From NCBI GenBank assembly GCA_029775855.1, contig JARVJZ010000004.1, forward strand, positions 4,901 through 68,900: a DNA stretch of 64,000 bases, in the 5' to 3' direction. How positions within the stretch are numbered: the stretch's first letter is position 1; every line of letters starts with the position of its first letter. The notes under the pieces are model-generated. The model saw only the letters and a program-made list of their open reading frames with translations, had not been told where the DNA came from and searched no databases. Of this stretch, positions 8,172-32,318 are shown piece by piece. A program made the position numbers and the translations under genes. The stretch comes from Nitrososphaeria archaeon. Lineage in GTDB: Archaea; Thermoproteota; Nitrososphaeria; Nitrososphaerales; JAAOZN01.

Positions 8172-8199
8172 TGGTAATCTTTAATAATTTATTGCTATT

Positions 8200-10316: not shown

Positions 10317-10337
10317 TGGACTCTACATCATTATCCT

Positions 10338-11744: not shown

Positions 11745-11800
11745 TCTGGCACCATTCAGTTTGCTGACTAAGAATTTATTTAAGTGTTAATTTCGGCGAT

Positions 11801-13120: not shown

Positions 13121-13125
13121 GAATC

Positions 13126-14670: not shown

Positions 14671-14689
14671 CTAGAATACCTCACAAATA

Positions 14690-16090
14690 TTACCATCTTC
14701 TTGATTGAATTAATTGATAAAACATCATAATCAACCCGGTTAAAAACCCAATCAGCATCAGGAAAATACCAAGCTGGATATACGGCATAGCAAAACTACT
14801 ATGCGGCTCAGGATCCAAGAATATATAGAATACGGTGGCTCCAGTCAAAAGAATATAACCAGCAGTCATGAGTGAACCAACGATCTTAATAGAGTGGCCA
14901 ATATTGTTTATTCTTAATAAGGCTAGTAGAAAGAGAGCAACAGCGGTTAGAGTAGCTAAAGCATGCTCATGTCCCAAGATGAACGGAATCTCATTTTTTA
15001 AACCTACAAATTTGTCCAGATGTAAAGCTACATATATGCCAGGTAATGTAACCGCGATGTTTACCCAAAAGAATGTGAAGAGGAGACCAAAAGAAGCGGG
15101 ATCTTTGAATAGATTCTTTATTGGGTGAGCGTGGCTGTTTTCTAACGCTATATCCGCCATAACAGCGTACATAATGAATAGTGAACCTTGTAGTATTATA
15201 GCGCCGCTTGGTGTTATAACGTTATGTGCAGCGACACCTAAGGGAATAGTGGCGTACGTTGATATAGAGACTGCGGGGATGCTTAAAGCTACCATATAAA
15301 GGCCTATATCACCAAATAACCCTCTTGTGCCTTTAAAAGATTGAATATTGAAATGCTTAGAAGCCAAAAATACTACTGCGGCGGCTACAACAGTTACGAT
15401 AGCGTGCCTATGTGCTGCAACTATAATCCTGAATCTTTCGAGTTCTTCCAAGGCTCCCCATTGACTACTCCCAGTACTTGCGTAAAATCCTATTAGTGAA
15501 GTAGATAATACGAAAAAGATGGCGAGCCAGATTCCTATCTTTATGGCCCTCTCCTTTTTCATCGCGTAGATACTTTCTGCTCTAACATTATATCTACTGA
15601 TTGCTAATAGAAGTGATGCTCCTGCTAAGAAAGATAGTGAAAGACCAAAATAAAGTACAGCGTGTGCGATAGGGTTCCATCTTAACATTATGATAGTCCA
15701 GGCGCCCGCCGACGCAGACACGTAACCAATCGTTGCGTTGATTATAGCGTAATCTGCAGCTCTTCCAGTTAAGTTTAGGATATCAATAGAGACATATACC
15801 AAAACGGCTACGAAAGATACAGCCAAAGCGTGATAGAATAGGCTCTCGTAGGTAATCAGCTGTATCAAAGGTATCCTAAGAAGAGCAGTTTGACTAAAAG
15901 GTGGTGAGAAAGAGATCAGTGCTAGAATCTGCGCGAAGATCCATGTTGATGTGATGAAGGTTAGTGCTGTTAGCAGCCCACGCATAGCCAGAATAAGTTT
16001 GTATTCATTAAAAAAGTTTGTTTTGATGAGGCTATTTTGAGCGTGGCTAGGTTGGTGGTTGGGAGAGTATCCTAAGCTGAGGTTGTCCAC
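14690..16090 (-). CDS. Polytopic (about 14 TM) His-rich membrane protein, unknown function
   Basis: 466 aa, hydrophobic throughout, with conserved-looking intramembrane His (FYHALAV, IAHAVLYF, AAHRHAIV, AAHNVI, GHEHALATL). It lies 20 nt upstream of the GT2 gene on the same strand, so it is probably co-transcribed. Confidence 0.5.
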   Translation of the reverse strand: MDNLSLGYSPNHQPSHAQNSLIKTNFFNEYKLILAMRGLLTALTFITSTWIFAQILALISFSPPFSQTALLRIPLIQLITYESLFYHALAVSFVAVLVYVSIDILNLTGRAADYAIINATIGYVSASAGAWTIIMLRWNPIAHAVLYFGLSLSFLAGASLLLAISRYNVRAESIYAMKKERAIKIGIWLAIFFVLSTSLIGFYASTGSSQWGALEELERFRIIVAAHRHAIVTVVAAAVVFLASKHFNIQSFKGTRGLFGDIGLYMVALSIPAVSISTYATIPLGVAAHNVITPSGAIILQGSLFIMYAVMADIALENSHAHPIKNLFKDPASFGLLFTFFWVNIAVTLPGIYVALHLDKFVGLKNEIPFILGHEHALATLTAVALFLLALLRINNIGHSIKIVGSLMTAGYILLTGATVFYIFLDPEPHSSFAMPYIQLGIFLMLIGFLTGLIMMFYQLIQSRRW

Positions 16091-16155
16091 ATCTTCTGTC
16101 TTATTCGTAAACTATATTTGTGTCTGTGTGCTGTTTTGGTTTGGTGCTGTTTTAG

Positions 16156-17286
16156 GTGGGTTTTGTACGTTCGCTTTTAGCTCTGTTTCTCGCTTTGCTT
16201 GTGAGTGGGGTCTCTACTTCAGCGGTTTTAATTCTTCCTCCTCCTACGCCTCAAGACCCTTTGGCGCCTAAGATTCTTTCTTCTAAGGGGCAGAGTTTAG
16301 ATCCTGTTTTCAGCCCAGACGGTAAGTTCATAGCCTACTCCTCAAATCTTTACGGAGACTTCGACATATGGCTTATGACTGTTGATGGTAGGAATCAAGT
16401 TAGGTTAACTTGCTTAGAAGGAGATGAGAAGAAACCCCAGTTCAGCCCAGATGGAATGAAAATTGCCTTTATACATTCATCTAACTTCGGTGAAGACATT
16501 TGGGTAGTGAATAGAGATGGCTCAAACCCCGTTAAGATAACAAACAATCATACACCAAAAAACAAGTTTGAATGGTCGCCCAATGGGTACCTTATAATCT
16601 ACGACACAATTGTAAACGATAAATGGCAGGTTTGGCTAACTTCTTTGAACAAAGGTATCAATATTTTTGTTGGGGATTCTGAAGAAAGATACGCGCCTTC
16701 TTGGAGCCGCAACGGTAAGTTTGCTATATGTGTAAATAAAGGCGTCAAAGGGTATAGTTTGGAGTTAATAGATGTTTCGACTAATTCGGTTGAAAAAATT
16801 TACACAACATCTGCAGTTATAAAGTATCCAAGTTTCTTTAGTGCTGATGAAAAGATTCTCTTTTTAAGAGGAAACGGTGATTGGAGCGTATATACTTTCA
16901 ACATAGGTAATTCACGCATCACAAATCTATTTGCAGACCCACTAAGGTATTATGCGGGCATACCTTGGACACCCATTTTAGAATCGGAAGTACCTTACGC
17001 TACGAGAACTAAGGCTTCAGAGCTTCTTTTCGTCGGCTACTCTAAACAAGGCGCTGAATTGTTCATATTGTATGATGATATAGAGATAGACTTTAAGGAA
17101 AGAGGTGTAGGTGTTATAAAAGGTTCAATAATTGAGAGATTATTTACAATAGGGCATACAAGAATAAATAGCCTAAGTTGGAGCCAAGATGGTCATAGCA
17201 TCTTACTGTCGTTTACCGAAGGAGGTTATAATATATTATCCTTACTAGTTCTAGAAAAAAAGAAAGTTTCACCTTATGAAAAATAA
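16156..17286 (+). CDS. Secreted TolB-like beta-propeller protein (PD40/WD40-like repeats), paralog 1
   Basis: N-terminal signal or anchor (LLALFLALLVSGVSTSA). Repeated PD40-type motifs: FSPDGKFIAYSS..DIWLM, FSPDGMKIAFI..DIWVV, WSPNGYLIIY and PSWSRNGKFAI. Confidence 0.7.
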   Translation: MGFVRSLLALFLALLVSGVSTSAVLILPPPTPQDPLAPKILSSKGQSLDPVFSPDGKFIAYSSNLYGDFDIWLMTVDGRNQVRLTCLEGDEKKPQFSPDGMKIAFIHSSNFGEDIWVVNRDGSNPVKITNNHTPKNKFEWSPNGYLIIYDTIVNDKWQVWLTSLNKGINIFVGDSEERYAPSWSRNGKFAICVNKGVKGYSLELIDVSTNSVEKIYTTSAVIKYPSFFSADEKILFLRGNGDWSVYTFNIGNSRITNLFADPLRYYAGIPWTPILESEVPYATRTKASELLFVGYSKQGAELFILYDDIEIDFKERGVGVIKGSIIERLFTIGHTRINSLSWSQDGHSILLSFTEGGYNILSLLVLEKKKVSPYEK

Positions 17287-17305: not shown

Positions 17306-18064
17306 TTACCCATTGTCGTCTCTAGTTAATTCCATAAGTTCCTCTATATTCTTAGGCTTCAGAATCAGCTTATCCTTTAATCTAATTCCCATTGGTATTT
17401 CCTTTATATCATTTAGCGATTTGAAGATTGGTGGGAGAGGCTCTCTCGACCCTAAAAGTAGTAAGGCTTTATCCTCATCGTACGGGATTATCTTCTTCTT
17501 TTCACCCTTTGGTTTGAATACAACTGATGGGTTAGTTAAGCTTGGGTTTGGTAAGTCCTTTAGTTGTTTGACAGAACCATACTTTTTGACTAGATTCTCC
17601 ATTGTATCAAAGTCTAGAGCTCTCATCGGGCAAGCTAAGACGCATACAGGCTTAAGACCTTCTTCAAGTCTATCGATGCACATTGTACATTTATTAGCCT
17701 TAACGTCATTAGCTAACCTATCGCTCTCGTATGTTATGGCTCCATATGGGCAAGCTCGTTGGCAAAGTCTGTAACCTTTGCATTTTTCTTGATCTATCAG
17801 AACCGCGCCGTATTTCTCTTCTTTATATATTGCACCGTTAGGACACGCATCTATACAGACGGGATTACTACAATGGAAGCAGGTTACCCAGCGTATATGA
17901 GTTTTGATATTGGGATAATATCCCTCCTCATATTCGTAGATTCGAAGATATTTTATTGGCCCCGGTTTCAAGTCATACCAATCCTTACAAGCAACTACAC
18001 ACGCCTTGCAGTTAATGCATCTATCTTCGTTAAAGTAGAAGCCATATTGGACCATATCGCTCAC
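17306..18064 (-). CDS. Four-cluster ferredoxin subunit (DmsB/NarH-like) of molybdoenzyme 1
   Basis: Four Cys groups: CINCKACVVAC, CFHCSNPVCIDACP, CKGYRLCQRACP (C-x2-Y-x2-C-x3-CP, a NarH-like 3-Cys group) and CTMCIDRLEEGLKPVCVLACP. It has a C-terminal extension of about 100 aa ending in ELTRDDNG. It overlaps the catalytic gene by 4 nt. Confidence 0.85.
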   Translation of the reverse strand: MSDMVQYGFYFNEDRCINCKACVVACKDWYDLKPGPIKYLRIYEYEEGYYPNIKTHIRWVTCFHCSNPVCIDACPNGAIYKEEKYGAVLIDQEKCKGYRLCQRACPYGAITYESDRLANDVKANKCTMCIDRLEEGLKPVCVLACPMRALDFDTMENLVKKYGSVKQLKDLPNPSLTNPSVVFKPKGEKKKIIPYDEDKALLLLGSREPLPPIFKSLNDIKEIPMGIRLKDKLILKPKNIEELMELTRDDNG

Positions 18065-20736
18065 CTCAACTTTTGTACCTCAACAACACTTGTTACTGGG
18101 AATGAACCAGATGGGCTCATCGAATCATATGTCAACACATTACAAGCACCTCTGCTATCCATGCCAGCTGGGTTTGGTGTAAACCAAGCACCGTGCCAAA
18201 CTGCTACGACGCCAGGCATAATCTTTGCAGTCACATAAGCCGGCAGTATTATTTCACCGCAATCGTTGAATACTCTAACCAAATCACCATCCTTGATACC
18301 TCTAGCTTTTGCGTCAGAGACACTTATCCATACTGAGTGTCGATACGCCTCCTCATCTAGCATAGGGTTGGTATCGTATGCTGTGTGAGATCTGTAGCGG
18401 CTATGCGGTGTTATCATTGTTAATGGATACTTATTTGCCAATGGGCTGAACATCATGTGCTCTGGTGGAATATATTTTGGAATAGGTGGTACATATCCAC
18501 CGTATTTTGTTTTAGTGAGATCAGTTTTAGCCAAATACTCTGAATATATCTCGATCTTTTTAGATGAGGTATTTGCGAAAGGTTTTCCTTCTTTGACTTC
18601 AACGCCATATGAATAAAGTGGTTCTGGAAAATCAAAGTGGTAAACCACTTGCTTCTTGAAGTCTTCCCAGCTAGGTAGGGTTCGCCCAATATTTGCTAGA
18701 CTTTTTGCTCTTGCTTCCCACGCTGCTTTAAGAAGCCTATCTTTAGTTTCTTCCCATTTGGAGTCATCTGTGTAATTGGGGTTGAATTCTTTGAGGAAGC
18801 CCATCTTCTCCGCTAGCTTTGTAAATATCCAATCTGGTTCTTTTGCCTCTCCTTGAGGTTCAACACATTTAGGAGAGTAGACCCACCAGCAACCCGATAT
18901 ATTCCCCCAAGGTGAATCTATAGTTGTAGTTTCAAATGGTGTTTCGACTACTGGTAATATAACATCAGAATACAGTGCAGTAGGTGTCATATGTATTGCG
19001 AAGTTAACGACATAATCAACCTTCTCAAGCGCCTTTACACCCTTTAGAATGTTCATGTTTCTGTTCAGATATTGACCGATTGCGTTAAAGATCATCTTGA
19101 TATTAGGTAAGGGGTTAGTTGCAGGATTACCTATTATGCTATTGTACTGCTCGGCAGTCAACGATTTACCAACCTCGTCTCTAAGAAGTATGGTATCAGC
19201 CCACTTAAACTGCTTAAAAGCTATAATTGTCTTTTGTTTTCCACTTCCACCCCAGCTAGCGCTTGGTGGACTTGGGGCTCTATCGCTCTCAATAGCCCAA
19301 TTAGTGGTGTTAATGTATCCACCCGGTACACCGATGTTTCCAGTTAAAGCTTGAAGCGCTATTGCAGCTCGAGCAACGTTTTCACCGTATTGATTTCTTG
19401 CTGGAGCCCAGCTTTTGAAGAGGCAGACAGGCTTGCTTCTCGCATATAAACGTGCAAAGCTTCGTATGGTTTCAGCTGGCACACCGCAAATCTTTTCAGC
19501 CCACTCTGGAGTTTTTGGTACACCATCCTCAACTCCTGTGACGTAGTCCTTCCACTTCTTAACCCCTTCTGGTTCAACAAACTTTTCGACATATTCTTTA
19601 TCATATAAGTCTTCAGTAAAGAGCACATATGCAACCGCTAAAGCAAAAGCAATATCTGTACCTGGTCGTATTGGGATCCATTGGTCTGCTAGTATGTCTA
19701 TAGTGTTAGTGTATTTGGGATCTATCGCTATTATTGGAGTGCCTTTCTTTTCTTTGATAAGTTTCATAAGATATAAAGTGTTTGTGCCAAATATTGTGTT
19801 TGCAGGGTCGTGCCCCCATAGAACTATTAGATTTGAATTAATCATGTCTGTTGTCTGATGACCTTTACCATAAGTTATACCCAACATATGGTTCTCGCTA
19901 AAGATCTCTGCCTCAAAAGAGCAAACACCCCAGCTATCGACTGTGTCAACAATGTGACTAAAGAATCTTGAGGCTCCTCTCTGCCATATAGAATATGGCC
20001 CATATTTCTCTTTGACTTCCTTAATCATCTTTGCGACTAAATCTAATGCTTCATCCCAGCTAATTCTTACAAATTTTCCCTCTCCTCTCTTTGTGCCCTC
20101 CACTCTTTTCATTGGGTACTTTATCCGATCTGGATTGTATATCCAATATTTCAGTGCACGCCCCCTTACACAAGGACGCTTTTGGACGATCGCGTTTATT
20201 AGCTTGTGATAATCAAGCAACTCATCTTCAATCGCTACGTTTGAATGGAGTAAGTCGTCTCCTTCGATAGCTGTAATAACACCGTTCTTAATTCTTGCTT
20301 TAAGTAGACAACCTCTGCCACCGCAGTTAATTGTGCAACTACCATAGCTTATGGTTTCTTGTTGGTGTTTTGCTGCTAGTTGCTGTTTTATGGCTTCGAC
20401 TCTTTGTTTGATTTCTGGTGATAGGGGTGGTTTTAGGCTTGGTGGTGGGGGTGGTGTTTGAGTTACGGTTGTGGTTGCTGTTTGAGTTACTGTTGCTGTT
20501 TGTGTTACTGGTGTTGTGACTGTCGTTGTCTGTGTTACTGGTGTTGTTACCGTCGCTGTTTGTGTTGTGGTTCTGGTCTGTGTTACTGTTGCTGTGACTG
20601 TCTTTTCAACCTCTCTGATAGGTGTGAGAAGCCTATCAGCACCAACACCAACCGCAACACCAGCTACAGCAGAAGCAGCTAAAGCGCCAGCCCACTTCAA
20701 CATAGAACGGCGAGAAACCTTAACCTCCTCACCCAA
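18061..20736 (-). CDS. TAT-exported molybdopterin oxidoreductase catalytic subunit, DmsA-like, paralog 1
   Basis: Twin-arginine motif SRRSMLKW followed by an h-region. A Thr/Pro-rich insert of about 60 aa comes next. The FS0 motif is CTINCGGRGC...C. DMSO-reductase-family blocks are present (GEGKFVRISWDEALD, IDPKYT, WIPIRPGTD, TGNIGVPGG and the C-terminal GIKDGDLVRVFND). TTG start. Confidence 0.9.
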   Translation of the reverse strand: MGEEVKVSRRSMLKWAGALAASAVAGVAVGVGADRLLTPIREVEKTVTATVTQTRTTTQTATVTTPVTQTTTVTTPVTQTATVTQTATTTVTQTPPPPPSLKPPLSPEIKQRVEAIKQQLAAKHQQETISYGSCTINCGGRGCLLKARIKNGVITAIEGDDLLHSNVAIEDELLDYHKLINAIVQKRPCVRGRALKYWIYNPDRIKYPMKRVEGTKRGEGKFVRISWDEALDLVAKMIKEVKEKYGPYSIWQRGASRFFSHIVDTVDSWGVCSFEAEIFSENHMLGITYGKGHQTTDMINSNLIVLWGHDPANTIFGTNTLYLMKLIKEKKGTPIIAIDPKYTNTIDILADQWIPIRPGTDIAFALAVAYVLFTEDLYDKEYVEKFVEPEGVKKWKDYVTGVEDGVPKTPEWAEKICGVPAETIRSFARLYARSKPVCLFKSWAPARNQYGENVARAAIALQALTGNIGVPGGYINTTNWAIESDRAPSPPSASWGGSGKQKTIIAFKQFKWADTILLRDEVGKSLTAEQYNSIIGNPATNPLPNIKMIFNAIGQYLNRNMNILKGVKALEKVDYVVNFAIHMTPTALYSDVILPVVETPFETTTIDSPWGNISGCWWVYSPKCVEPQGEAKEPDWIFTKLAEKMGFLKEFNPNYTDDSKWEETKDRLLKAAWEARAKSLANIGRTLPSWEDFKKQVVYHFDFPEPLYSYGVEVKEGKPFANTSSKKIEIYSEYLAKTDLTKTKYGGYVPPIPKYIPPEHMMFSPLANKYPLTMITPHSRYRSHTAYDTNPMLDEEAYRHSVWISVSDAKARGIKDGDLVRVFNDCGEIILPAYVTAKIMPGVVAVWHGAWFTPNPAGMDSRGACNVLTYDSMSPSGSFPVTSVVEVQKLR

Positions 20737-20755
20737 ACAACATCAACTCTTGCTC
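20350..20755. repeat. Left arm of a perfect 406-bp inverted repeat (partner at 27719-28124)
   Basis: I compared the reverse complements block by block. The antisense ORFs in the two arms are also identical in the ORF track. Identity ends at 20349/28125 and at 20756/27718. Confidence 0.95.
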
Positions 20756-20771
20756 AGATACACACTATAAG

Positions 20772-20779
20772 TATTTAAA
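20772..20779 (-). promoter_or_regulatory. Candidate TATA box for molybdoenzyme-1 operon
   Basis: The minus strand reads TTTAAATA. It lies 16 nt outside the repeat arm and about 40 nt upstream of the TTG start. This is an archaeal TATA-like sequence read by eye only. Confidence 0.3.
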
Positions 20780-22354: not shown

Positions 22355-23044
22355 TTATTTGCTCAACTCATCTATTACAAAAGGTATAAATTCTTGTTCT
22401 ATTTTAATAAATCCATTTAACATTTTTGCAATACCTATGTAAAATTTGTTCGAAGACGCCTCTACAATCTTTCGACAAAGCTCTGGCACCCATTTACTTA
22501 GATGATCGCTTAAGAACTCCATTTGTAGTTTCAAGTATCCCTTTGAGTACTCAACGTTATTTGCGTCAAGGCTTCGCTTCGTCAAGTCTACCAGCTTTGC
22601 CATAAACTCTAGTTCCACAGCTAAATGGTCTTCAGGTTCTTTAAAATCAGGGGTTTTCTCAAAGCCTAATATTCTATATGCATCCAAGACCTCAAAATAT
22701 GGTTCTTCATATAACGTATGGTGCTTTCCAAGGTACACCGATTCAACTAAATAGACTGGTTTAGGGCCGACATTCAAGAAAAGTGATGCGTATTCTGAAG
22801 CAAGATCCGTAAGTAAGTTATTCCTTTCTGGAGTTTCTTTAAAGTTTTTAAAGAAATCGGATATGATTATGCAACCTTTCTTTAGTTCCTCATTATCTGC
22901 TGATTCAGACAATTGGATAAAAAGTTCTTCTAGTTCTTCTATAAGTTTGAGAAATGCTTCATCGACTTCCTTTGCAAAACTTCTTGATAAGAAGCTATAG
23001 AGAACGTACCTTGTCTGCATAACATCTTTATAATTATTTAACAA
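22355..23044 (-). CDS. TorD/DmsD-family redox-enzyme maturation chaperone
   Basis: The N-terminal RYVLYSFLSRSFAKEVDEAFL pattern and the acidic helical body (EDHLAVELEFMAKL) are typical of TorD-like chaperones. It is the last gene of the Psr-like operon. Confidence 0.65.
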   Translation of the reverse strand: MLNNYKDVMQTRYVLYSFLSRSFAKEVDEAFLKLIEELEELFIQLSESADNEELKKGCIIISDFFKNFKETPERNNLLTDLASEYASLFLNVGPKPVYLVESVYLGKHHTLYEEPYFEVLDAYRILGFEKTPDFKEPEDHLAVELEFMAKLVDLTKRSLDANNVEYSKGYLKLQMEFLSDHLSKWVPELCRKIVEASSNKFYIGIAKMLNGFIKIEQEFIPFVIDELSK

Positions 23045-23062
23045 CCTGATCTAACTTCCTTC

Positions 23063-24304
23063 TTATTGGTTAATATTCTTTTCCGTCCTCCATATAGGAA
23101 ATATCCAATATGCTATAGTAGTTATAAGAGCAATTATACCAAATAAAGCAGCGCCTATCGTTAATTCTATCCACGTAGGAAAGTACACACCATACACACC
23201 AAATGAAGATAAGCCGACACTGTATTCTCCTTTTGCTATGCCAGGTGGTAATAATATAGGCGGATATATATAGCCTGGGACTACAAGTTCAACTCTGTAG
23301 GATAATACGCCGGTAAGCACAAGTAAGGCTGCCAATCCAAGTATCTTCGGGTTCATTCTAAGTCTTGGATGTAATAGTAAGATGAATGGTAATATGGCCC
23401 CCGGGATCCACTCGTATACGAAGAATGGTAAGAAGGGGCCGGTAAATATTAGCGTTAGAGGTAGTGTCTCTGATGGTGCGGCAGACCATAACCTTATGAC
23501 GAATTCATTTCCTATAAGGAATAGATCTATTGGGATGATGACTGCAAGCAACTTACCGAGTGTATTAATTGTTTTAACCTCTACTCTTATTCGGCTGCGC
23601 CACTGCATGATTAGAACTGTCAATATGACTAATGAGAGCCCTGAGATCATAGCTGAGGCTAAGAAGATAGGGGCAATCAAAGCGCTGTACCACCAGCTTC
23701 TACTTATTTGTGTTCCGAATATCCACGCTGTTACTGTGTGTAGCATTACTGCTGTGGGCAGAGCTATAAACGAGATCACTTTGACTATTCTCTCGTCTTT
23801 AGCAACCGCTTTTGGCGAAACATCATTAAATCCGAAGGTGAGACGGCTGCCTTTCCTAGCTAACTCCGCACGCATCATAAACCAAAGATCAACTATACAC
23901 AAGACCAAATAGACAACTATTACAGTAAAGTCCCATATCAGCGGCGAAAGTGGATTGCCATATAATATAAGGTAGGCTATACGCTCAGGTCTACCCAAAT
24001 CTGGGATAATAGATAGAGCTGCAACAGCAACACAAGCAGCTGCCAGCGTGGTAGCCACTTTAGCTATCGGTTTAAACTCTTCTACTCCAAACACATGTGC
24101 AGAAGATGAGACGATAAGACCACCTGCGCTTATGCCTACGAAGAAGGCAAATAATGTGATGTAGATTCCCCAGCTTACAACATTTCTCATTCCAGTTACT
24201 ATCAACCCGTTTTGTAGCTGGATAATCCACGCACCCAAGCCTCCGCCGATGAGCAGAAGTAAAAATATTAACCAGCCGTAGAATAATGGCGAATGTTTAG
24301 CCAC
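23063..24304 (-). CDS. NrfD/PsrC-type integral membrane quinol-interacting subunit
   Basis: About 10 TM helices. The NrfD-like opening is VVSWGIYITLFAFFVGISAGGLIVSSS. It overlaps the FeS gene by 8 nt. Confidence 0.8.
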   Translation of the reverse strand: MAKHSPLFYGWLIFLLLLIGGGLGAWIIQLQNGLIVTGMRNVVSWGIYITLFAFFVGISAGGLIVSSSAHVFGVEEFKPIAKVATTLAAACVAVAALSIIPDLGRPERIAYLILYGNPLSPLIWDFTVIVVYLVLCIVDLWFMMRAELARKGSRLTFGFNDVSPKAVAKDERIVKVISFIALPTAVMLHTVTAWIFGTQISRSWWYSALIAPIFLASAMISGLSLVILTVLIMQWRSRIRVEVKTINTLGKLLAVIIPIDLFLIGNEFVIRLWSAAPSETLPLTLIFTGPFLPFFVYEWIPGAILPFILLLHPRLRMNPKILGLAALLVLTGVLSYRVELVVPGYIYPPILLPPGIAKGEYSVGLSSFGVYGVYFPTWIELTIGAALFGIIALITTIAYWIFPIWRTEKNINQ

Positions 24305-25106
24305 GCTGCAACACCCTCTTCAAAGTGGCTGAAGCGATAGCCTTTAGAGAAATATCACTTGATGTTGATATGATGGATGTTAATGTAGATTCGACATGCT
24401 TGACAAAAGCTTCATATAAGTTAGTAAACGACTGTTTACCACGTTTAGGTGGAAGATAGTAGGTCTTCGGTTGTGTCCCTAATTCTTCAAGCAATCTTAC
24501 ACCACTCCGCTCTTTAACCAGTTTTGACACTTTGCTATTGGGATCATCCAGATCTCCGAAGAATCTTGCTCTCGCGGGGCACATAGCTACGCAGAAGGGC
24601 TCTTGCCCATCTGTGATACGATGTATACATAGTGTGCATTTTTCTACGACACCCTTAGGTCTCTCCGGAGAATATATTATCCAACCCTCATCCTTTACTA
24701 CACCTTGATAACCTGTTCCATGCTCAGGCAAATGCTTTGGTTCTGCCCAGTTGAAGACGCGAACGCCATAAGGACAAGCGGCCATACAATATCTGCATCC
24801 TACACACCTCTCAATTCTTAGCTGTACAGTTCCATCTTCTTCACGCCTATAGGTGCCTGAAACAGGGCAAGCTTTTACACACGGTGCGTTATCACAATGT
24901 TGACATGTAATTGGAAGATAGAATATAGATGTATTTGGGTAGCTTCCTGAGCTTGTGTCAATCATAGACCCGCCGACGGTAAGCACTCGATTCCACCAAT
25001 TTCCTAAGCTCACATTATTCTCAAGTTTGCAAGCGATTGCGCAGGTTTGGCAGCCAATGCATCGATCCAAATCTATAACAAGCCCATATCTTACCAACCT
25101 AATCAC
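24297..25106 (-). CDS. Four-cluster ferredoxin subunit (PsrB/HybA-like)
   Basis: Cys groups CIGCQTCAIAC, CQHCDNAPCVKACP, CVGCRYCMAACP and CTLCIHRITDGQEPFCVAMCP. Confidence 0.85.
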   Translation of the reverse strand: MIRLVRYGLVIDLDRCIGCQTCAIACKLENNVSLGNWWNRVLTVGGSMIDTSSGSYPNTSIFYLPITCQHCDNAPCVKACPVSGTYRREEDGTVQLRIERCVGCRYCMAACPYGVRVFNWAEPKHLPEHGTGYQGVVKDEGWIIYSPERPKGVVEKCTLCIHRITDGQEPFCVAMCPARARFFGDLDDPNSKVSKLVKERSGVRLLEELGTQPKTYYLPPKRGKQSFTNLYEAFVKHVESTLTSIISTSSDISLKAIASATLKRVLQRG

Positions 25107-25109
25107 ATC

Positions 25110-27626
25110 CTATGCTTTTTGAACCTCAACTAATGTGTCAAAGAAGGAGCAGTTTAGAGTTATTGGATTCTTGTGTGCTGGTGTCAACTCATTATAGCTA
25201 CCTGCTGCGAACTGCCTTTTTTGCCATCCTTTATCCATGTTAATCAAGCCCGGTCTTAAACTTGGATTTAATTTGGCTCTCGCTCTTACCCAGCCTCTAT
25301 CGTTAAACACGTTAACGACATCGCCATTCTTAATTCCTCTGGCTTCAGCGTCCCTCGGGTTCATTTCGACAAATGGTTCTGGATCTAGTTCCCTTAACCA
25401 AGGAACTTCATACCACTGGGAGTGAACACGCCACTTCGAATGCTGCTGTATAAGCGTCAATGGATACTTCTTAGTTAAAGGGTTTTCGACCCAAGCTTCT
25501 TTAGGTGATTCAAAGTATGGAAGCGGATTAACACCCATAGTTACAGATATACCAAGAGCTGGATATGCCCAAGGATAGTTTAAAATCACCCTCTCAGAAT
25601 AAAACTCAAGACGCCCAGTTTGAGTAGGGTATTTACCGTCTTCATAGCCTATATAAGGCTCTTTAGAAAGTCTTACTACTCCCTCTTCTTTGAATCTTTT
25701 GATCTTTTCTTCACCGTATACTTCCTTTAACGCAGCAAGTATTCTTTCCCGATGGTCAGCTTCTGAACCTTGAAAGTATTGACCGAATCCCATCTTTTCA
25801 GCTAACATCTTAAAGATGTCCCAATCACTTTTGCATTCATACAACGGTTTGATCGCTCTTTCTTGGATCATTAGGTATGGGTGTAAACCACCCATTAAAT
25901 CGTCGTTCTCAAACCACGTTGTAGCTGGGAGAACAATATCAGCAAACATAGCTGTATCATTCATCTTCTGCTCTATCACTACGATAAATTCTAAGTTTTC
26001 TTCGGAAAACAGCTTTTCAATCCACTTTTGATTAGGGTAGCTGTTAACAAAGTTAGTACAAGATATTACTGCAGCTTTGATGGTGTATGGTGTTGGGATG
26101 GGGTCTTTGCTTATAGTTCCTTTTAAGGGGTCAGCCGGATCGCTAGGCACATACCTTTCAACATAACCATAAGCTATTGCGTCGTAAGCTAGGAGCGGAT
26201 TCAGGGTGTGAGCTTCTGTCCCAGATGGGGTAACCCACCTCCAAGACTCACTTAAAGCTGCTATTAGAGCTGAACCACCGTATGGTCCTCCAACCATCGC
26301 GCCAGGCCTACCTATGTTTCCAGTTAGTGCTGCTAGTGTAGCTAACGCTCTACCAGTAAGATAGCCATTATCCCATCTATCTACACCGAACCCTGCGAGA
26401 ATGCAGGCTGGTTTTCTTGTTGCATAGAGCCTTGCTACTTCTTGAACTTCGTTTGCAGGAACTTCGGTTAGCGCTTCAGCGTTTTCGGGTTTATATTTTG
26501 AGGCTTCTTCCCAAAGTAGCTGTAGAGCTGTTTTACAAAGTATACCATTAATTACGTATTTTCCAAAAAGAGCTGGAGGCATAGCTTTCTCGAAAACCGT
26601 TGGAGCGTCGGTGGCTTCATCATAGACTACATAATTGTTACTACCGTTTTCTTTGATGTCTTTTTCTCTTAAAAATAGACCATTATCTAATCTAACCAGA
26701 AATGGTGCGACTGTGCGCTCTAGAACAAACTTTCTATCATATAGCTCTTCATTCAATATGGTGTAGATCATTGAGAGGGCTAGCGCCGGATCTGAGCCTG
26801 GTCTTGGTTTTAGCCATATATCTGATTTGGCGGCTACAACACTCATTCTAGGATCGATGGAAACCATTTTTGCCCCGTTTTCCAGAGCATCTGCTACGAA
26901 ATGCCAGTTTTGAATCTGGCTTTCAGTGAAGTTAGACCCCCACATTATGATAAGCCTAGTATTATCTGCTATATCCACTGCTTCGTTAGCGCCAAAGAAA
27001 GCTGAGCTACCTCCTGGGATGTTTGCAATAACTTGGCTAAGTCCAAGTGGGAGGGCTGAGTCGACTCCTCCTTCTACTACCGTACCTTGAAATATATTGG
27101 CAAATAGCTTCATGGCGCCACAGAAGCTACCATTCACTAAACCATAATTCCCAGAGAGTGTAGCGAACATTACAGCACTTGAGCCATACTTCTCTTTGAC
27201 TTTTAAGAGTTTTTGTGCAATAGTGTTAATGGCTTCATCCCAGCTTATCCTTACCCACTTACCCTCACCCCTCTTCCCCACTCTTTTCAAAGGATACTTT
27301 AGTCTATTTGGATCATAAACACGTTGAACATGAGATAAACCTCTAAGGCATATCCGATCATACCTTCTATTGGGCATAGGTGCCATCTCAGTTTTAACAA
27401 GCTTATCCTCAAATACGTGGACATAAAGCCTGCAGCTCTGCCAGCAGTTAGGAGCGCAAGCGCTACGAAATACTTTAGTTGTCTTCTCCATCTTTTCGAT
27501 TGAAGCAGAAGCGCGAGATGGTATAAGCAAATTGCAACCAAGTGAGGATAAAGCTGCAATAGAAGTTGTTAAGGCAAGGCCTTTCAGGAAGGAACGACGC
27601 GATAGAACCATTGTAGGCTTATCCAC
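25110..27626 (-). CDS. TAT-exported molybdopterin oxidoreductase catalytic subunit (Psr/Ttr/Dms-like), substrate unknown
   Basis: Twin-arginine signal SRRSFLKGLALTT. FS0 motif CAPNCWQSC. Family blocks GEGKWVRISWDEAI, IDPRMS, TGNIGRPG and the C-terminal GIKNGDVVNVFND. Confidence 0.9.
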   Translation of the reverse strand: MDKPTMVLSRRSFLKGLALTTSIAALSSLGCNLLIPSRASASIEKMEKTTKVFRSACAPNCWQSCRLYVHVFEDKLVKTEMAPMPNRRYDRICLRGLSHVQRVYDPNRLKYPLKRVGKRGEGKWVRISWDEAINTIAQKLLKVKEKYGSSAVMFATLSGNYGLVNGSFCGAMKLFANIFQGTVVEGGVDSALPLGLSQVIANIPGGSSAFFGANEAVDIADNTRLIIMWGSNFTESQIQNWHFVADALENGAKMVSIDPRMSVVAAKSDIWLKPRPGSDPALALSMIYTILNEELYDRKFVLERTVAPFLVRLDNGLFLREKDIKENGSNNYVVYDEATDAPTVFEKAMPPALFGKYVINGILCKTALQLLWEEASKYKPENAEALTEVPANEVQEVARLYATRKPACILAGFGVDRWDNGYLTGRALATLAALTGNIGRPGAMVGGPYGGSALIAALSESWRWVTPSGTEAHTLNPLLAYDAIAYGYVERYVPSDPADPLKGTISKDPIPTPYTIKAAVISCTNFVNSYPNQKWIEKLFSEENLEFIVVIEQKMNDTAMFADIVLPATTWFENDDLMGGLHPYLMIQERAIKPLYECKSDWDIFKMLAEKMGFGQYFQGSEADHRERILAALKEVYGEEKIKRFKEEGVVRLSKEPYIGYEDGKYPTQTGRLEFYSERVILNYPWAYPALGISVTMGVNPLPYFESPKEAWVENPLTKKYPLTLIQQHSKWRVHSQWYEVPWLRELDPEPFVEMNPRDAEARGIKNGDVVNVFNDRGWVRARAKLNPSLRPGLINMDKGWQKRQFAAGSYNELTPAHKNPITLNCSFFDTLVEVQKA

Positions 27627-27691: not shown

Positions 27692-27700
27692 TTTATATAT
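27692..27700 (+). promoter_or_regulatory. Candidate TATA box for molybdoenzyme-2 operon
   Basis: TTTATATAT lies about 19-27 nt outside the repeat arm and about 40 nt upstream of the TTG start at 27738. Read by eye only. Confidence 0.3.
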
Positions 27701-27718: not shown

Positions 27719-28124
27719 GAGCAAGAGTTGATGTTGTTTGGGTGAGGAGGTTAAGGTTTCTCGCCGTTCTATGTTGAAGTGGGCTGGCGCTTTAGCTGCT
27801 TCTGCTGTAGCTGGTGTTGCGGTTGGTGTTGGTGCTGATAGGCTTCTCACACCTATCAGAGAGGTTGAAAAGACAGTCACAGCAACAGTAACACAGACCA
27901 GAACCACAACACAAACAGCGACGGTAACAACACCAGTAACACAGACAACGACAGTCACAACACCAGTAACACAAACAGCAACAGTAACTCAAACAGCAAC
28001 CACAACCGTAACTCAAACACCACCCCCACCACCAAGCCTAAAACCACCCCTATCACCAGAAATCAAACAAAGAGTCGAAGCCATAAAACAGCAACTAGCA
28101 GCAAAACACCAACAAGAAACCATA
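27719..28124. repeat. Right arm of the perfect 406-bp inverted repeat (partner at 20350-20755)
   Basis: Same evidence as the left arm. It covers 19 nt of 5' leader plus codons 1-129 of the gene. Confidence 0.95.
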
Positions 28125-30428
28125 GTGTACAGTGGGGGGTGTGGAATAAATTGTGGTGGTGGCGGAGGTTGGGATAGTGGGTGCTTCTTTAAAATAAGAC
28201 TTAGGGATGGTGTGATAACAGCTATAGAATCTGATGATACTATTAACACCAATCTGCCTAGGGAAGACGAAGTAAAAGATAACATTGATAAAGTGAGACT
28301 TCAACGCCGACCGTGTGTCCGTGGTAGAGCTTGGCGCAAATATATCTACGGACCAGACCGTATTCTATATCCATTGAAGAGAGTAGGTCAAAGAGGTGAG
28401 GGAAAGTTTGTTCGAATTAGTTGGAATGAGGCTCTAGATACTATTGCAGCTAAAATGAAAGAAATGAAAGAGAAATACGGTCCATACTCAATAGGCACTA
28501 TGTATGAGTACCAAGAGTTTCCTAACATTCTTGCATACTTTGGTTGCGGCGCTACAGGTTGGAGCACAGCGTCTTTTGAAGCTACTAACTTTGCTGGGCT
28601 ACAGATGATGGGTGCTTGGGCTTGGATACCTTACGTTGATCACGAAGCACCAGACATTTTTAACACTAAACTCATAATCATGTGGGGGTGGGACCCAACT
28701 ACATCAGAATGGATGATCTTCACAAAATACTATCTTCTACTAGCAAAAGAAAAGGGTATACCAATTATCGTAATCGAACCTAGATATACGTCATCGGCAG
28801 AAGTTTATGCAGACCAGTGGATACCAATTAGACCCGGCACTGATGTAGCAATGATGTTAGCGATGGCAAACGTTATATTCAAGGAAAAGCTTTACGATCA
28901 AGATTATATCTCGAAATATGTGGATACGAATGGTCTTCAAAAATGGATGGACTATGTCTTAGGTAAGTCTGATGGAGTCGATAAGACGCCTGAGTGGGCA
29001 GAGAAGATATGCGGTGTTCCTGCTGAAACTATACGCGACTTAGCTCGACTATACGCTAAGAGCAAACCTTGCCATCTTAATGTAAGCTGGGCGCAAGCCA
29101 GACAGCCTTGGGGTGAGAATGTCGCTAGAGCAGCAATAGCTTTACACGCCATAACGGGAAACATAGGTGTGCCAGGTGGTGCTTCTTGCTTAGGTGGTGG
29201 ATTTGTGGCAAGAGGTGTTTATGATAGCCCAGTTGTCGATTATAGGCAAAAACCTGTTCCCGTAACAGAAATGTGGGGTGGGACATTACCAGTGCTATAT
29301 TGCAACTGGAAGTGGGCTGATGTAGTTCTGCTAAAAGAGAAGGTTGATAAGGGTGAGATGACTAAAGAAGATTACTACAGCATCATCGGTAACGATGCAA
29401 ATAACCCTATGCCCAATCTACATATGTTATGGATAAATAAGAACATATTTAATCAGACAGTTGATCTTAACAAACAAATCAAGGCTATTATGAAGATGGA
29501 CTTTGTAGTTGCTTGCGGGAGGCATATGACGCCATCAAACAAATATGCTGATATAATATTGCCCCTAACAGATGTCATGTTTGAAGAAAGACACTTTTTC
29601 GGCAACATGTATGCACCAAAGATCATTAACCCCCCAGGAGAAGCAAAAGATTTGTTGTGGATTCAAACTCAACTCGCCAAAAGACTGGGTCTTCTCGACT
29701 TGTATATGCCACTCTACACTACAGATGCTGAATGGGATAACTTGCTGGAAAGGCTCCATAAAGAAGCCTATGAAAAATGGGCGGCTCAACGAGGAATAAA
29801 TGTTTCTTGGGAGGAGTTTAAGAAGAAGCCAATAATACGCAGAGATGTCGTAGGAGAATTGAATTATCCCTTTAAAGCGCAGATTCAGAAAGGTGAGAAA
29901 TTTAACACAAGTACTGGCAAGATCGAAATATATTCTGAATATTTGGCTAAGACTGATCTAAAGAAGACAAGATACGGAGGATATATAGATCCTATGCCAG
30001 TCTACAGACCGCTTTGGGAAGGCTTTTACGATCCAAAAGCAAAAAAGTATCCACTTATGGTTATCACACCCCACGGAAGGTACAGAATCCACTCTGTTCA
30101 AGACTCTAATCCTTGGTTATCTGAAGATGCATATAGGAACTCAGTTTGGATAAGTGTGGTCGACGCTAAAGCAAGAGGCATTAAAGACGGTGACTTAGTC
30201 AGAGTTTACAACGACGTGGGAGAAATGGTGATTCCAGCTTATGTGACTTCGAGGATAGTACCTGGTGTAGTCTGTGTGTATGAGGGTAGATGGTATAGTC
30301 CAAACCCCAAAGGAGTCGATCGTAGAGGATGCAGTGATATAATATGTTATAATGAGAGTGCTGTACAACGATATCCCGGCGCTGGAGCTTGGCCGTTTAC
30401 AGCGCTTGTGGAGGTTGAAAAGTTCTAA
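27738..30428 (+). CDS. TAT-exported molybdopterin oxidoreductase catalytic subunit, DmsA-like, paralog 2
   Basis: The first 129 aa are identical to paralog 1. The FS0 motif carries a Gly-rich insertion (CGINCGGGGGWDSGC). Family blocks are present (GEGKFVRISWNEALD, IEPRYT, WIPIRPGTD, TGNIGVPGG, GIKDGDLVRVYND). By eye it is roughly half identical to paralog 1 after residue 129. Confidence 0.9.
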   Translation: MGEEVKVSRRSMLKWAGALAASAVAGVAVGVGADRLLTPIREVEKTVTATVTQTRTTTQTATVTTPVTQTTTVTTPVTQTATVTQTATTTVTQTPPPPPSLKPPLSPEIKQRVEAIKQQLAAKHQQETIVYSGGCGINCGGGGGWDSGCFFKIRLRDGVITAIESDDTINTNLPREDEVKDNIDKVRLQRRPCVRGRAWRKYIYGPDRILYPLKRVGQRGEGKFVRISWNEALDTIAAKMKEMKEKYGPYSIGTMYEYQEFPNILAYFGCGATGWSTASFEATNFAGLQMMGAWAWIPYVDHEAPDIFNTKLIIMWGWDPTTSEWMIFTKYYLLLAKEKGIPIIVIEPRYTSSAEVYADQWIPIRPGTDVAMMLAMANVIFKEKLYDQDYISKYVDTNGLQKWMDYVLGKSDGVDKTPEWAEKICGVPAETIRDLARLYAKSKPCHLNVSWAQARQPWGENVARAAIALHAITGNIGVPGGASCLGGGFVARGVYDSPVVDYRQKPVPVTEMWGGTLPVLYCNWKWADVVLLKEKVDKGEMTKEDYYSIIGNDANNPMPNLHMLWINKNIFNQTVDLNKQIKAIMKMDFVVACGRHMTPSNKYADIILPLTDVMFEERHFFGNMYAPKIINPPGEAKDLLWIQTQLAKRLGLLDLYMPLYTTDAEWDNLLERLHKEAYEKWAAQRGINVSWEEFKKKPIIRRDVVGELNYPFKAQIQKGEKFNTSTGKIEIYSEYLAKTDLKKTRYGGYIDPMPVYRPLWEGFYDPKAKKYPLMVITPHGRYRIHSVQDSNPWLSEDAYRNSVWISVVDAKARGIKDGDLVRVYNDVGEMVIPAYVTSRIVPGVVCVYEGRWYSPNPKGVDRRGCSDIICYNESAVQRYPGAGAWPFTALVEVEKF

Positions 30429-30436
30429 GAGGTGGT

Positions 30437-31183
30437 ATGATGGTTCAATATGGATTTTTCTTTGACCAAAGCAGATGCATAGGTTGCAGAGCTTGCGCTG
30501 TAGCTTGCAAGGACTGGAACGATCTGCCTGAAGGACCGGTTAAGTGGCTTCGGATATATGAATATGAAAAGGGTGCTTTCCCAAATGTGAGGGTTCACTA
30601 CCACTTCATTCCTTGTTTCCATTGCGAAAACCCCATATGTATAGACGCATCTAGTGCTCGCGGTATTTATAAGGAAGAAAAGTATGGTGCTGTGTTAATA
30701 GACCCTGATAAGGCTACTAAACTGAGGGATGCAGCCGCTGCTTGCCTATACGGTTCGATAGTCTTTGAAAGTGATGCCTCTGATGCAAAAGCCTCAAAAT
30801 GCACAATGTGCATAGATCGATTAGAAGAGGGGCTACTACCAGTTTGCGTAGCAGCGTGCCCAACTAGAGCTTTGGATTTTGGACCTCTTGAAACATTGCA
30901 AAGAAAGTATGGTACAAACAGGGATCTAGAGGATCTACCACCGTCTACTCTAACAAAGCCTTCCGCAATCTTTAAGCCACACTCTCCGAAGAAGCAGCTA
31001 GTCAGCTACGATGTAAATAAGGCCCTAAAGCTGCTTGCTGAAAGAGGCGATCTACCAAGTATATATAGTACAGCTGAGGATGTATTAAATATACCAGAAG
31101 GGCTGTTAAAGCGCAATAAGTTAGTTCTTAAGCCAAATAGCGTAAAGGACCTTCAAGAACTAACAAGGGACGATAACGCCTAA
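30437..31183 (+). CDS. DmsB-like ferredoxin subunit of molybdoenzyme 2, with one cluster-binding site lost
   Basis: Group I (CIGCRACAVAC) and group IV (CTMCIDRLEEGLLPVCVAACP) are intact. Group II is CFHCENPICIDASS, so its last Cys is Ser. Group III is ATKLRDAAAACL, so only its last Cys is kept. The C-terminal extension ends in ELTRDDNA. Confidence 0.85.
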   Translation: MMVQYGFFFDQSRCIGCRACAVACKDWNDLPEGPVKWLRIYEYEKGAFPNVRVHYHFIPCFHCENPICIDASSARGIYKEEKYGAVLIDPDKATKLRDAAAACLYGSIVFESDASDAKASKCTMCIDRLEEGLLPVCVAACPTRALDFGPLETLQRKYGTNRDLEDLPPSTLTKPSAIFKPHSPKKQLVSYDVNKALKLLAERGDLPSIYSTAEDVLNIPEGLLKRNKLVLKPNSVKDLQELTRDDNA

Positions 31184-31199
31184 GAATCTCTACAGTTTC

Positions 31200-32318
31200 A
31201 TGACTCTCCTCTCATATTTTTTTAGAATTTTATGGATTTTCCTTTCACTTTCAATTTCTTCAGCAGCAGTATGGTCAGTTTTTTACCTACCAAATCCACA
31301 ATTACCTAGCAACAACAATGTTCTTCAACTTGTTAATAGCGGGGGAATGCCGGCAATAGACTCTCTTGGCGATACTGTCTCCTACATTTCATTAAATGAT
31401 GGATATAGTGAGATATGGTTGATTCGCAGCGATGGAAGAGAAAATAGACTTTTAACACCTATAAAAGGTAATATATCTAAAATTAAGTGGAGTCCAAATG
31501 GATTAGTAATAGCGTTTATTGCTAATCAAGGCTCTGATAAGATCTTCAGGATTTCGAAATATGGTGGAGTTATTACGCCAGTGAGCCGCGCGTTTGATGC
31601 TATCGAACAATTTGTATGGCTAGACGATGAATGGATTTTGCACGACGGCTACGAAAATGGTAAGTGGGGCGTATATCTCTCTAAAACAGACCGCGTGTAC
31701 GTTAGACTTAGCTCTTTCGATATCGACGCAAAGCATCCTAACTTATTAAAAGAAGGATCTCTTGTTGCAATGAGCGCAAAATATAGCGAGGGATACAAAA
31801 TAATCCTTTACAATCTCACATCAGGAAGTTGGACTCCTATAACTTTTGGAAGTGGTGATGATCTTAAACCCGCATTCAGCCCAGACGGCAAGAAGATAGC
31901 ATACCTATCTAATCGAGCAGGCAGGTGGAGCATTTGGCTAAAGAACATTGACACCGATAGTGAAATAGATCTTACGGCACCTTTTTCAGAGAGACGATAC
32001 CCCAGTTGGGCTCCTGATGTAGACCTCAATACAACTTTGATCTGGAAACCAGATTCACAACATCTAATATTCGACGGAAAACGTGGAAATTCCCGCGAGA
32101 TTTATATAATTAACTTAAGTGGTGGAACGGTAACTTTACGTTTCGCCGTTAAAGAATATTTTCCTCTGATACTCAACGTGGTATTTGAAAGCGTTTCGTC
32201 CTACAATCCAGTAATAGATCCAAGAGGTGAAAGTATATACTTTGAGAATAGAGGAGAAGGAGCCAGCAGTGTTTGGCGATTAGATCTTAACGTAAAACGA
32301 GCCTTATCTTATGGTTGA
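31200..32318 (+). CDS. Secreted TolB-like beta-propeller protein, paralog 2
   Basis: N-terminal hydrophobic signal or anchor. PD40-type motifs WSPNGLVIAFI, FSPDGKKIAYLSNRAGRWSIWL, PSWAPD and WKPDSQHLIF. It starts 16 nt after the FeS gene on the same strand. Confidence 0.65.
   Translation: MTLLSYFFRILWIFLSLSISSAAVWSVFYLPNPQLPSNNNVLQLVNSGGMPAIDSLGDTVSYISLNDGYSEIWLIRSDGRENRLLTPIKGNISKIKWSPNGLVIAFIANQGSDKIFRISKYGGVITPVSRAFDAIEQFVWLDDEWILHDGYENGKWGVYLSKTDRVYVRLSSFDIDAKHPNLLKEGSLVAMSAKYSEGYKIILYNLTSGSWTPITFGSGDDLKPAFSPDGKKIAYLSNRAGRWSIWLKNIDTDSEIDLTAPFSERRYPSWAPDVDLNTTLIWKPDSQHLIFDGKRGNSREIYIINLSGGTVTLRFAVKEYFPLILNVVFESVSSYNPVIDPRGESIYFENRGEGASSVWRLDLNVKRALSYG

Follow-up and report, generated by a model that had tools for sequence, protein, structure and literature searches.

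Two archaeal DmsA-like molybdoenzymes share an N-terminal module with a putative uncleaved Tat anchor and a Thr-rich stalk

Two molybdoenzymes with one N-terminal module

The window analysed here, a 64,000-nucleotide stretch of contig JARVJZ010000004.1 (assembly GCA_029775855.1) from a Nitrososphaeria archaeon, encodes two paralogous molybdoenzymes that begin with the same N-terminal module. A1 (27738..30428, + strand; 896 aa) is a DmsA-like catalytic subunit of the molybdenum-bis(pyranopterin guanine dinucleotide) (Mo-bisPGD) type, and A2 (18061..20736, − strand; 891 aa) is its paralogue. Each has a DmsB-like partner: B1 (30437..31183, +), a ferredoxin subunit that lacks a signal peptide and is presumably exported attached to A1, and B2 (17306..18064, −). 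The catalytic bodies of A1 and A2 are 49% identical in amino acid sequence, and B1 and B2 are 57% identical. Both catalytic subunits match the Mo/W-bisPGD families PF00384 (1e-41 for A1, 1e-40 for A2) and PF01568 (1e-20 and 3e-25), and the top Foldseek matches of A1 are MtsZ, DorA and TorA, with TM-scores of 0.68-0.80. Against the DmsA/YnfE model TIGR02166, A1 scores 481.2 bits and A2 507.3 bits, short of the cut-off of 777.7; the enzymes are related to DmsA/YnfE yet lie outside that subfamily. Cysteine motifs for the FS0 iron–sulfur cluster are present in both, as C135-x3-C139-x9-C149-x43-C193 in A1 (28140..28316, +) and C134-x3-C138-x4-C143-x45-C189 in A2. Compared with B2, B1 lacks two Cys of one ferredoxin cluster motif (DKATKLRDAAAACLYGS in B1, EKCKGYRLCQRACPYGA in B2) and may therefore bind one cluster fewer.

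The pairs thus share with DmsABC and YnfEFGH of the Escherichia coli type a catalytic fold with PF00384 and PF01568, an FS0 Cys cluster, a DmsB-like four-cluster partner and a twin-arginine leader. They differ in having no DmsC/NrfD gene, in scoring far below the TIGR02166 cut-off and in the unusual FS0 spacing of A1 (x3, x9, x43), and their nearest relatives are signal-less enzymes of Chloroflexota. They also carry approximately 71 extra residues ahead of the point at which the E. coli DmsA model begins to align, A1 residue 114 corresponding to model position 43.

Comparison of the translations shows that residues 1-129 are the same in A1 and A2, and translation of 27738-28124 (+) yields the order of elements given in the initial annotation: LGEEVKVSRRSMLKW, AGALAASAVAGVAVGVGA, DRLLTPIREVE, a 50-residue Thr tract, PPPPP and SLKPPLSPEIKQRVEAIKQQLAAKHQQETI. 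On the A1 copy, an n-region and twin-arginine motif, LGEEVKV-SRRSMLKW (27738..27782, +), are followed by the Gly/Ala/Val-rich hydrophobic segment AGALAASAVAGVAVGVGA (27783..27836, +), which forms the h-region of a twin-arginine translocation (Tat) signal and is the proposed retained anchor. Next come the motif DRLLTP and the residues IREVE (27837..27869, +); in relatives, D-L-L-[LI]-R-P is conserved at this place, +1 to +6 of the putative cleavage site. The Thr-rich tract, a stalk of variable length with T-x-T-x periodicity, occupies residues 45-94 (27870..28019, +), and a PPPPP spacer (28020..28034, +) connects it to an SLKPPLSPE motif and an amphipathic helix ending ..HQQETI (28035..28124, +), the N-terminal element of the enzyme body. 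The distance from the Tat motif to the first Fe–S motif, initially put at about 95 aa, is 119 residues in A1 (W15 to C135).

The charged helix had been counted as part of the insert. It belongs instead to the enzyme body, because the KPPLSPE/helix element also opens signal-less relatives (P0009, P0011, P0012, P0016, P0026 and P0070), because the AlphaFold2 (AF2) model places helix 107-123 at a predicted local distance difference test (pLDDT) score of 73-87, with residues 1-101 below 50, and because DmsA models begin aligning at residues 112-114. P99, P100 and L101 are invariant in the alignment of module-bearing relatives. What has really been added is the signal/hydrophobic block with its linker, without the helix.

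The TTG at 27738 is the sole start codon that retains the twin-arginine motif, and an in-frame TGA precedes it at 27729. Public gene calls for P0001, P0005, P0102 and others begin at an internal Met (MLKW...). This start deletes the RR motif, so that automated localisation calls will be wrong for the clade, and metabolic reconstructions would misplace the truncated orthologues in the cytoplasm. The window protein carries SRRSMLKW followed by an 18-residue Gly/Ala/Val segment, in keeping with a Tat substrate and with the clade consensus; its Pfam TAT_signal score of 20.9 bits is slightly below the cut-off of 22.7, which the relatives P0127 (25.4 bits) and P0173 (22.9 bits) pass. The hydrophobic segment has a Kyte–Doolittle mean of 1.67 over 19 residues, and AF2 models a helix at residues 9-28 with low confidence. 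The motif and a cofactor-bearing passenger whose B subunit is signal-less point to Tat export of A1 and A2. Neither tatA nor tatC is encoded in the 64-kb window. A signal of the lipobox or class-III (pilin-type) kind was considered and rejected, as no Cys precedes residue 134/135 and a K/R-G/A cleavage motif is absent.

The inverted repeat and its conversion

The two module copies form a perfect inverted repeat of 406 nt, 100% complementary, with arms 6963 nt apart. The right arm (27719..28124, +) comprises a 19-nt leader and codons 1-129 of A1, and the left arm (20350..20755, −) the leader and codons 1-129 of A2. Identity begins 19 nt ahead of the TTG start and ends abruptly past codon 129. 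Upstream, A1 has the TATA-like box TTTATATA at 27692-27699 and A2 a different one, TTTAAATA, at 20772-20779; judging from archaeal promoter geometry, identity sets in a few nucleotides from the expected transcription start, approximately 26 nt past the TATA-like box.

A related lineage, at approximately 77-79% nucleotide identity, allows a comparison. Its contigs, L001/L002 and L003, come from other samples and have the gene order of the window, with flanking genes 73-79% identical in nucleotide sequence. In this lineage, too, the A1-type and A2-type genes share a module of their own, which is 99.7% identical over 392 nt (L002 against L003); within L002, whose contig begins inside the inverted arm, the paralogue modules are 99.3% identical over 145 nt. 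Between the lineages the module is approximately 80% identical, with 34 gap positions, and repeat identity stops at the same codon in both. Modules are thus at 100% (406 nt) and 99.3-99.7% within genomes, compared with approximately 80% between lineages and 49% amino acid identity for the bodies. Since the paralogue modules are homogenised within each lineage yet diverge between lineages, gene conversion must have recurred. The pattern argues that conversion between the inverted copies keeps the module identical from approximately the transcription start to codon 129. The converted tract is bounded by unalignable bodies on one side and by the promoters on the other.

An assembly artefact, in which a collapsed or duplicated repeat has lent the 129 codons to a second enzyme and the module truly belongs to one enzyme only, is extremely unlikely. 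Short-read assemblies of related samples do break here, L002 and L008 starting within the arm and L003 at its edge. However, both orthologues carry the module in independent contigs from different samples and assemblers (L001, L002 and L003), and the artefact was rejected on these contigs. In addition, the two copies have separate upstream regions and their reading frames pass uninterrupted into two distinct bodies, and other genomes hold sets of module-bearing paralogues.

Recent gene conversion was also considered as a general property of the module and rejected: the paralogue modules of Nitrososphaerales archaeon JOPF014, a Bathyarchaeota metagenome-assembled genome (MAG) and contig L009 are only 76-83% identical in nucleotide sequence, and conversion is therefore lineage-specific. 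Conservation of the anchor at the protein level is general, unlike conversion.

The bodies behind the module also change between strains. Contig L008 is syntenic with the A2 locus, with a flank at 91.8% nucleotide identity and a neighbouring 466-aa gene product at 99% amino acid identity; behind a 98.6%-identical module, the body is a third type, the B subunit differs and the propeller is a mosaic. Contig L011 retains the A1-specific upstream region and the module at 97% nucleotide identity and then continues into a TorA-like body, with the junction inside the Thr tract at window position 28019. Closely related strains appear, on these alignments, to join the same module to other catalytic bodies. 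The perfect 406-nt inverted repeat would, moreover, allow inversion of the 7-kb segment between its arms, with both promoters and the polysulfide reductase (Psr) operon described below. Pattern scans of metagenome DNA for close strains with the inversion or alternative junctions returned 0 matches and then 2 unrelated module-bearing contigs.

Near-identical leader or signal regions among divergent paralogues, maintained by recombination and sharply bounded, are familiar from surface-protein families of Borrelia, Neisseria and Mycoplasma. Such families use it for antigenic or phase variation and often rely on silent cassettes or site-specific recombinases. The window differs from them in that each copy has a promoter, redox enzymes are the passengers and the neighbourhood shows no evident recombinase. 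A homogenised 5′ module in front of different bodies in near-identical strains shows that the export/anchoring part and the catalytic part can evolve as separate modules.

Both ends of L001 (1-350 and 14922-15275) are direct repeats of approximately 90% identity that encode a transposase-like fragment, and an element resembling an insertion sequence apparently lies 33 nt outside the inverted arm in that strain; L002 continues there into the A2-type arm. In the JOPF014 MAG, open reading frames of 117 and 142 codons (L014 3950-4303 and L016 3947-4375) resemble a decayed module (ISKRSLLMWTHALAAVWILGIALGFSGNILLGPS...) without an enzyme body and may be relics of module recombination.

Distribution, linker and membrane retention

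To place the module among known proteins, the 129 residues were used as the query of a full HMMER scan of 1.84 billion cluster representatives, which returned 65 clusters at E<=1e-3. When read individually, nearly all of these proved to be archaeal Mo-bisPGD subunits or fragments. Among the best 120 homologues of the body, approximately 21 carry the module; the others have no signal, their FS0 lies 7-58 residues from the N terminus, and those named by source belong to Chloroflexota/Dehalococcoidia. The homologue survey called for in the initial annotation finds the module to be rare, its signal and hydrophobic segment being conserved within a small clade of archaea. A scan of the genome collection with a narrow alignment of the module identified the hosts. 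In a MAG labelled "Thermoprotei archaeon", from DRTY-6, the first 90 residues of the module are 96% identical in amino acids to those of the window. "Nitrososphaerales archaeon JOPF014" has six loci with the module, of which two are decayed, and at least three module genes, which lack a Thr tract, occur in a "Candidatus Bathyarchaeota" MAG.

Module-bearing relatives share two conserved blocks, [KR]xVSRRSxLKW(T/S/A)GALAAxGxVGxGLGxG(G/A)DLL(L/I)RP and LSY(K/V)PPLSPxVQ..helix..HxGE. The bodies that follow are diverse: some contain FS0, some lack it and some are TorA/BisC-like. The last group (P0133, P0153, P0173, P0178, the 859-aa gene of L009 and L011) has no KPPLSPE helix. The FS0-less group (P0127, P0141, P0132, P0142, P0156, P0167, P0182 and P0004) has lost all or most FS0 Cys and retains the KPPLSPE helix and a B subunit, which suggests a radiation of paralogues with altered electron entry. 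The remaining matches to the module are solute-binding proteins of ATP-binding cassette transporters (SBP_bac, NMT1 and Peripla_BP_6). In these, an RR motif and a hydrophobic segment precede the linker P(V/I)(K/R)EVTKT...TVT, which is close to PIREVEKTVTATVT of the window; the PIREVEKT of the latter resembles the P(V/I)(K/R)EVTKT stretch.

Between the two conserved blocks lies the linker, which occupies exactly the stretch from the conserved hydrophobic segment to the enzyme's first conserved element. In the window it holds 28 Thr in 51 residues, whereas Thr makes up 4.4% of the remaining protein (binomial 9e-25), and it begins 11 residues past the h-region, as in the Ser/Thr-rich linker (ST-linker) layout. 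The DNA of the tract is tandemly repetitive in units of 18-30 nt, which accounts for variation in linker length. Measured from the end of the GxG[AG] motif, the spacer ranges from approximately 11-14 residues in Bathyarchaeota through 21 and 29 to 68 in the window, with approximately 56-58 in P0003/P0008, a slight overestimate because the starting point of the measurement lay a few residues too early; tracts longer than 68 are visible in P0127, P0149 and P0150. In the Bathyarchaeota relatives a Pro-rich spacer (PPPTPPP, PPPPPPP) makes up the entire linker.

The tract could instead be a structured β-ribbon with an all-Thr face that pairs with the same tract or with an envelope protein, acting as a rigid stalk or an oligomerization device, an arrangement compatible with a cleaved or an uncleaved signal. 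Alternate positions hold 23 of the 28 Thr, and AF2 draws a two-stranded hairpin (42-61 / 73-92) at low confidence. The pLDDT is below 50 across the entire tract, however, and among relatives the tract differs freely in both length and sequence, with numerous indels and scattered Pro and Gly residues, as in disordered linkers. We therefore regard a β-ribbon as very improbable.

The initial annotation had suggested that the enzymes are tethered to the outer face of the membrane by an uncleaved signal and a glycosylated stalk. This is the best-supported reading, on the position of the linker, the −3 residues, purifying selection and the design of solute-binding proteins; its central element, non-cleavage, is what we infer from them. 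At the putative GxG[AG]|D site of 39 relatives, residue −3 is Tyr in 15, Phe in 10, Val in 11 and Ile in 3, so that the −3 rule for signal peptidase I is violated (Tyr/Phe) in 25 of the 39. Gly is invariant at −4 and −2, and D-L-L-L-R-P is conserved afterwards. In two JOPF014 paralogues with unalignable bodies, the anchor is identical at 34/34 amino acids, although the 38 codons differ by 13 synonymous and 3 nonsynonymous changes; the anchor peptide is therefore under purifying selection. Solute-binding proteins, which must stay at the membrane, have the same design of RR motif, hydrophobic segment and Thr-linker, and by analogy this would support retention. The B subunits have no signal, and the propellers and the rhodanese encoded nearby have N-terminal hydrophobic segments; this would place the whole set outside the cytoplasm.

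In the mechanism that we propose, residues 1 to approximately 99 of both enzymes would constitute one portable export-and-tether module. The twin-arginine signal would route the folded, cofactor-loaded A–B dimer through the Tat pathway, and the Gly/Ala-rich hydrophobic segment, probably not removed, would stay in the membrane as an N-in/C-out anchor. The Thr tract and PPPPP would form a flexible, probably O-glycosylated stalk of up to approximately 15-20 nm if extended, keeping the enzyme outside the membrane and replacing or supplementing an anchor subunit of the DmsC/NrfD type. The KPPLSPE helix past the stalk would be the enzyme's own first structural element. That the module tethers both enzymes outside the membrane through an uncleaved Tat anchor is, on the sequence evidence, probable although unproven.

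The chief alternative, which we consider rather unlikely, is that signal peptidase I cuts the Tat signal at VGA|D, so that the mature enzyme begins with an unattached Thr-rich tail. The tail would then attach to the S-layer or to some other part of the envelope, or serve as a spacer or solubility tag, with no membrane anchoring through the enzyme's own N terminus. In A1 and A2 the site is well formed for cleavage (Val at −3, Ala at −1 and helix-breaking Gly at −2 and −4), and a Gly/Ala-rich, weakly hydrophobic h-region (Kyte–Doolittle 1.67) is typical of cleaved Tat signals. In addition, a 2018 review (PMC6098224) stated that no Tat substrate with an N-terminal membrane anchor had yet been identified in archaea. 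Cleavage fits poorly with Tyr/Phe at −3 in 25 of the 39 relatives and with the conserved +1 to +6 motif. It would also leave a linker that is conserved only in position without an obvious role once one end is cut free, and the same design occurs on solute-binding proteins that need tethering (PMC3189178).

Several points weigh against the picture of a tethering, gene-converted module. The window's own V-G-A|D site obeys the −3/−1 rule, and conservation of the h-region and DLLxRP could stem from binding by TatC or a TorD-type chaperone, or mark a dedicated processing site. It is difficult to see how electrons could pass directly from the membrane to an enzyme on a long flexible stalk. Strict T-x-T-x periodicity, together with the low-confidence AF2 hairpin, could mean a structured β-element and not a mucin-like stalk. 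To speak of no membrane partner may be too strong, given a conserved, His-rich protein with 12 transmembrane (TM) helices at the A2 locus. The L011 junction could be an assembly chimera, and the perfect identity of the arms could be slightly inflated if a short-read assembly collapsed the repeat.

Known systems offer precedents for each half of the proposed anchor–stalk device. Bacterial Rieske proteins have uncleaved twin-arginine signal anchors (Bachmann et al. 2006, as cited in PMC6098224). As proposed for A1 and A2, they combine a twin-arginine motif with a hydrophobic segment that acts as a single N-in/C-out TM helix, the cofactor domain lying outside. Rieske proteins, however, are bc/b6f subunits with a short hinge, whereas A1 and A2 have a Thr-rich stalk of 60-70 residues; retention is experimentally shown for the former, whereas for the latter we infer it. 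In Thermoproteus tenax, most binding proteins have an N-terminal TM segment followed by an ST/SQ linker and bind concanavalin A, and the segment was judged the likely anchor (PMC3189178). The ST-linkers of Sulfolobus follow a retained hydrophobic stretch (PMC2797410), and the layout in Thermoproteus, Pyrobaculum and Sulfolobus has been read as an anchor with a glycosylated arm (PMC3189178, PMC2797410, PMC3387779). These Thermoproteota proteins resemble A1 and A2 in the succession of a hydrophobic N-terminal segment, a low-complexity linker rich in Ser/Thr(/Gln) and a functional domain, and the module search itself retrieved such proteins. They differ in their passenger, a Sec or class-III binding protein as opposed to a Tat-dependent Mo/Fe–S dimer, and in their linker, the tract of A1 and A2 being almost pure Thr with T-x periodicity.

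The module thus combines two known devices, a Tat signal anchor and the ST-linker arm of Thermoproteota, on DmsA-/TorA-like molybdoenzymes without a classical anchor subunit. The mechanism is plausible rather than surprising. What is added is that the module is a separately evolving, gene-converted cassette. According to the initial annotation, its novelty would fail if comparable inserts were common and already characterized; the module is rare, and our literature search turned up no account of molybdoenzymes with a Thr stalk and a Tat anchor. Retention of the anchor would mean that respiratory molybdoenzymes are attached to the cell surface without a dedicated membrane subunit, and would give archaea their first N-terminal Tat signal anchors. 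The enzymes of archaeal O-glycosylation pathways were not known as of the 2018 review (PMC6098224); the Thr stalk is a defined, abundant candidate substrate, and the two enzymes offer concrete test cases for archaeal Tat anchoring and O-glycosylation. Genes for a family 2 glycosyltransferase (GT2; 13126..14670) and a GT87-like protein (11801..13120) are nearby, an observation of adjacency only.

Neighbouring genes and candidate membrane partners

No NrfD/DmsC-type gene follows A1–B1 or A2–B2 in the window, nor the corresponding pairs in L001-L004 and L006-L009. The initial annotation had noted this absence for the two window pairs, and what stands there instead is a PD40 propeller and a rhodanese on the A1 side and a convergent propeller on the A2 side. 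The sole NrfD of the window (23063..24304, −) belongs to a separate Psr-like operon between the repeat arms (22355..27626, −), so that neither pair is encoded as a three-subunit set of the DmsABC type. The operon also encodes a PsrA-like enzyme with an ordinary Tat signal and ASA site (25110..27626, −), PsrB (24297..25106, −) and a TorD-like chaperone (22355..23044, −). This Psr-like enzyme is an internal contrast to A1 and A2, with a short canonical signal and its own membrane subunit.

Nearly every A–B pair of the clade has a propeller gene beside it. The PD40/TolB-like β-propeller prop1 (31200..32318, +) has an N-terminal hydrophobic signal or anchor, and a second PD40 propeller, prop2 (16156..17286, +), has an N-terminal anchor and is convergent with B2. 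A propeller adjoins A–B twice in the window and also in L001/L002, L003, L004, L008, L009 and L017, and may act as an assembly factor or as a third subunit. Directly after A1, B1 and the propeller, a tandem-rhodanese protein with an N-terminal TM anchor is encoded at 32393-33256 (+), an arrangement kept in L001/L002, and this neighbour hints at a sulfur-compound substrate for A1.

Adjoining prop2 and two genes from A2 lies the gene for the 466-aa, 12-TM protein (14690..16090, −). It has no match among Pfam, NCBIfam or PDB sequences and only 15 homologues among 5.8 billion proteins. Six His are invariant in the family: H86, H226/H228 in 'AHEH', H288, and H373/H375 in 'GHEH'. The best 18 PDB matches of its AF2 model (pLDDT 82.5) are all heme-copper oxidase (HCO) subunit I or nitric oxide reductase (NOR), with TM-scores of 0.47-0.58, probabilities of 0.97-1.0 and E values of approximately 0.02-0.25. 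The predicted fold suggests that the protein may be a very divergent member of the HCO/NOR superfamily. A role as a GT-C glycosyltransferase for the stalk was considered and rejected, there being no family match and the model resembling HCO subunit I. On gene neighbourhood and predicted fold only, the protein is a candidate for an unconventional membrane partner. In another contig its homologue overlaps the propeller gene by 8 nt. The window (7530-17286) and L009 (13692-22688), from distant lineages, share a gene set in rearranged order, comprising A, B, the propeller, the 12-TM protein (39% identity), GT2 (50%), a 6-TM protein (7530..8171; 37%) and a methyltransferase; in L009 this set is one co-directional run.

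These elements can be joined into a single scheme, an extracytoplasmic redox module of a kind not described before, which as a whole we hold to be quite unlikely. A–B dimers on an uncleaved Tat anchor and an O-glycosylated Thr stalk would work with a Sec-anchored propeller and the divergent 12-TM HCO-like protein instead of DmsC/NrfD. The leader, anchor and stalk would form a recombination cassette that exchanges bodies between loci and strains, and the 7-kb segment would flip and thereby swap promoters.

Other neighbours were noted in passing. A Bathyarchaeota MAG with just a short Pro-rich spacer as its linker carries, at L005 11393-12599, A–B followed by two small, unannotated polytopic membrane open reading frames of 181 and 140 aa that are weakly similar to each other, a pair that could be a novel membrane subunit. 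Genes for a B12-binding radical S-adenosylmethionine (SAM) protein resembling HpnJ (20938-22347, +) and for a further radical SAM protein (33261-34586, −) flank the locus, and B12-binding radical SAM genes also occur near the 12-TM homologue on another contig.

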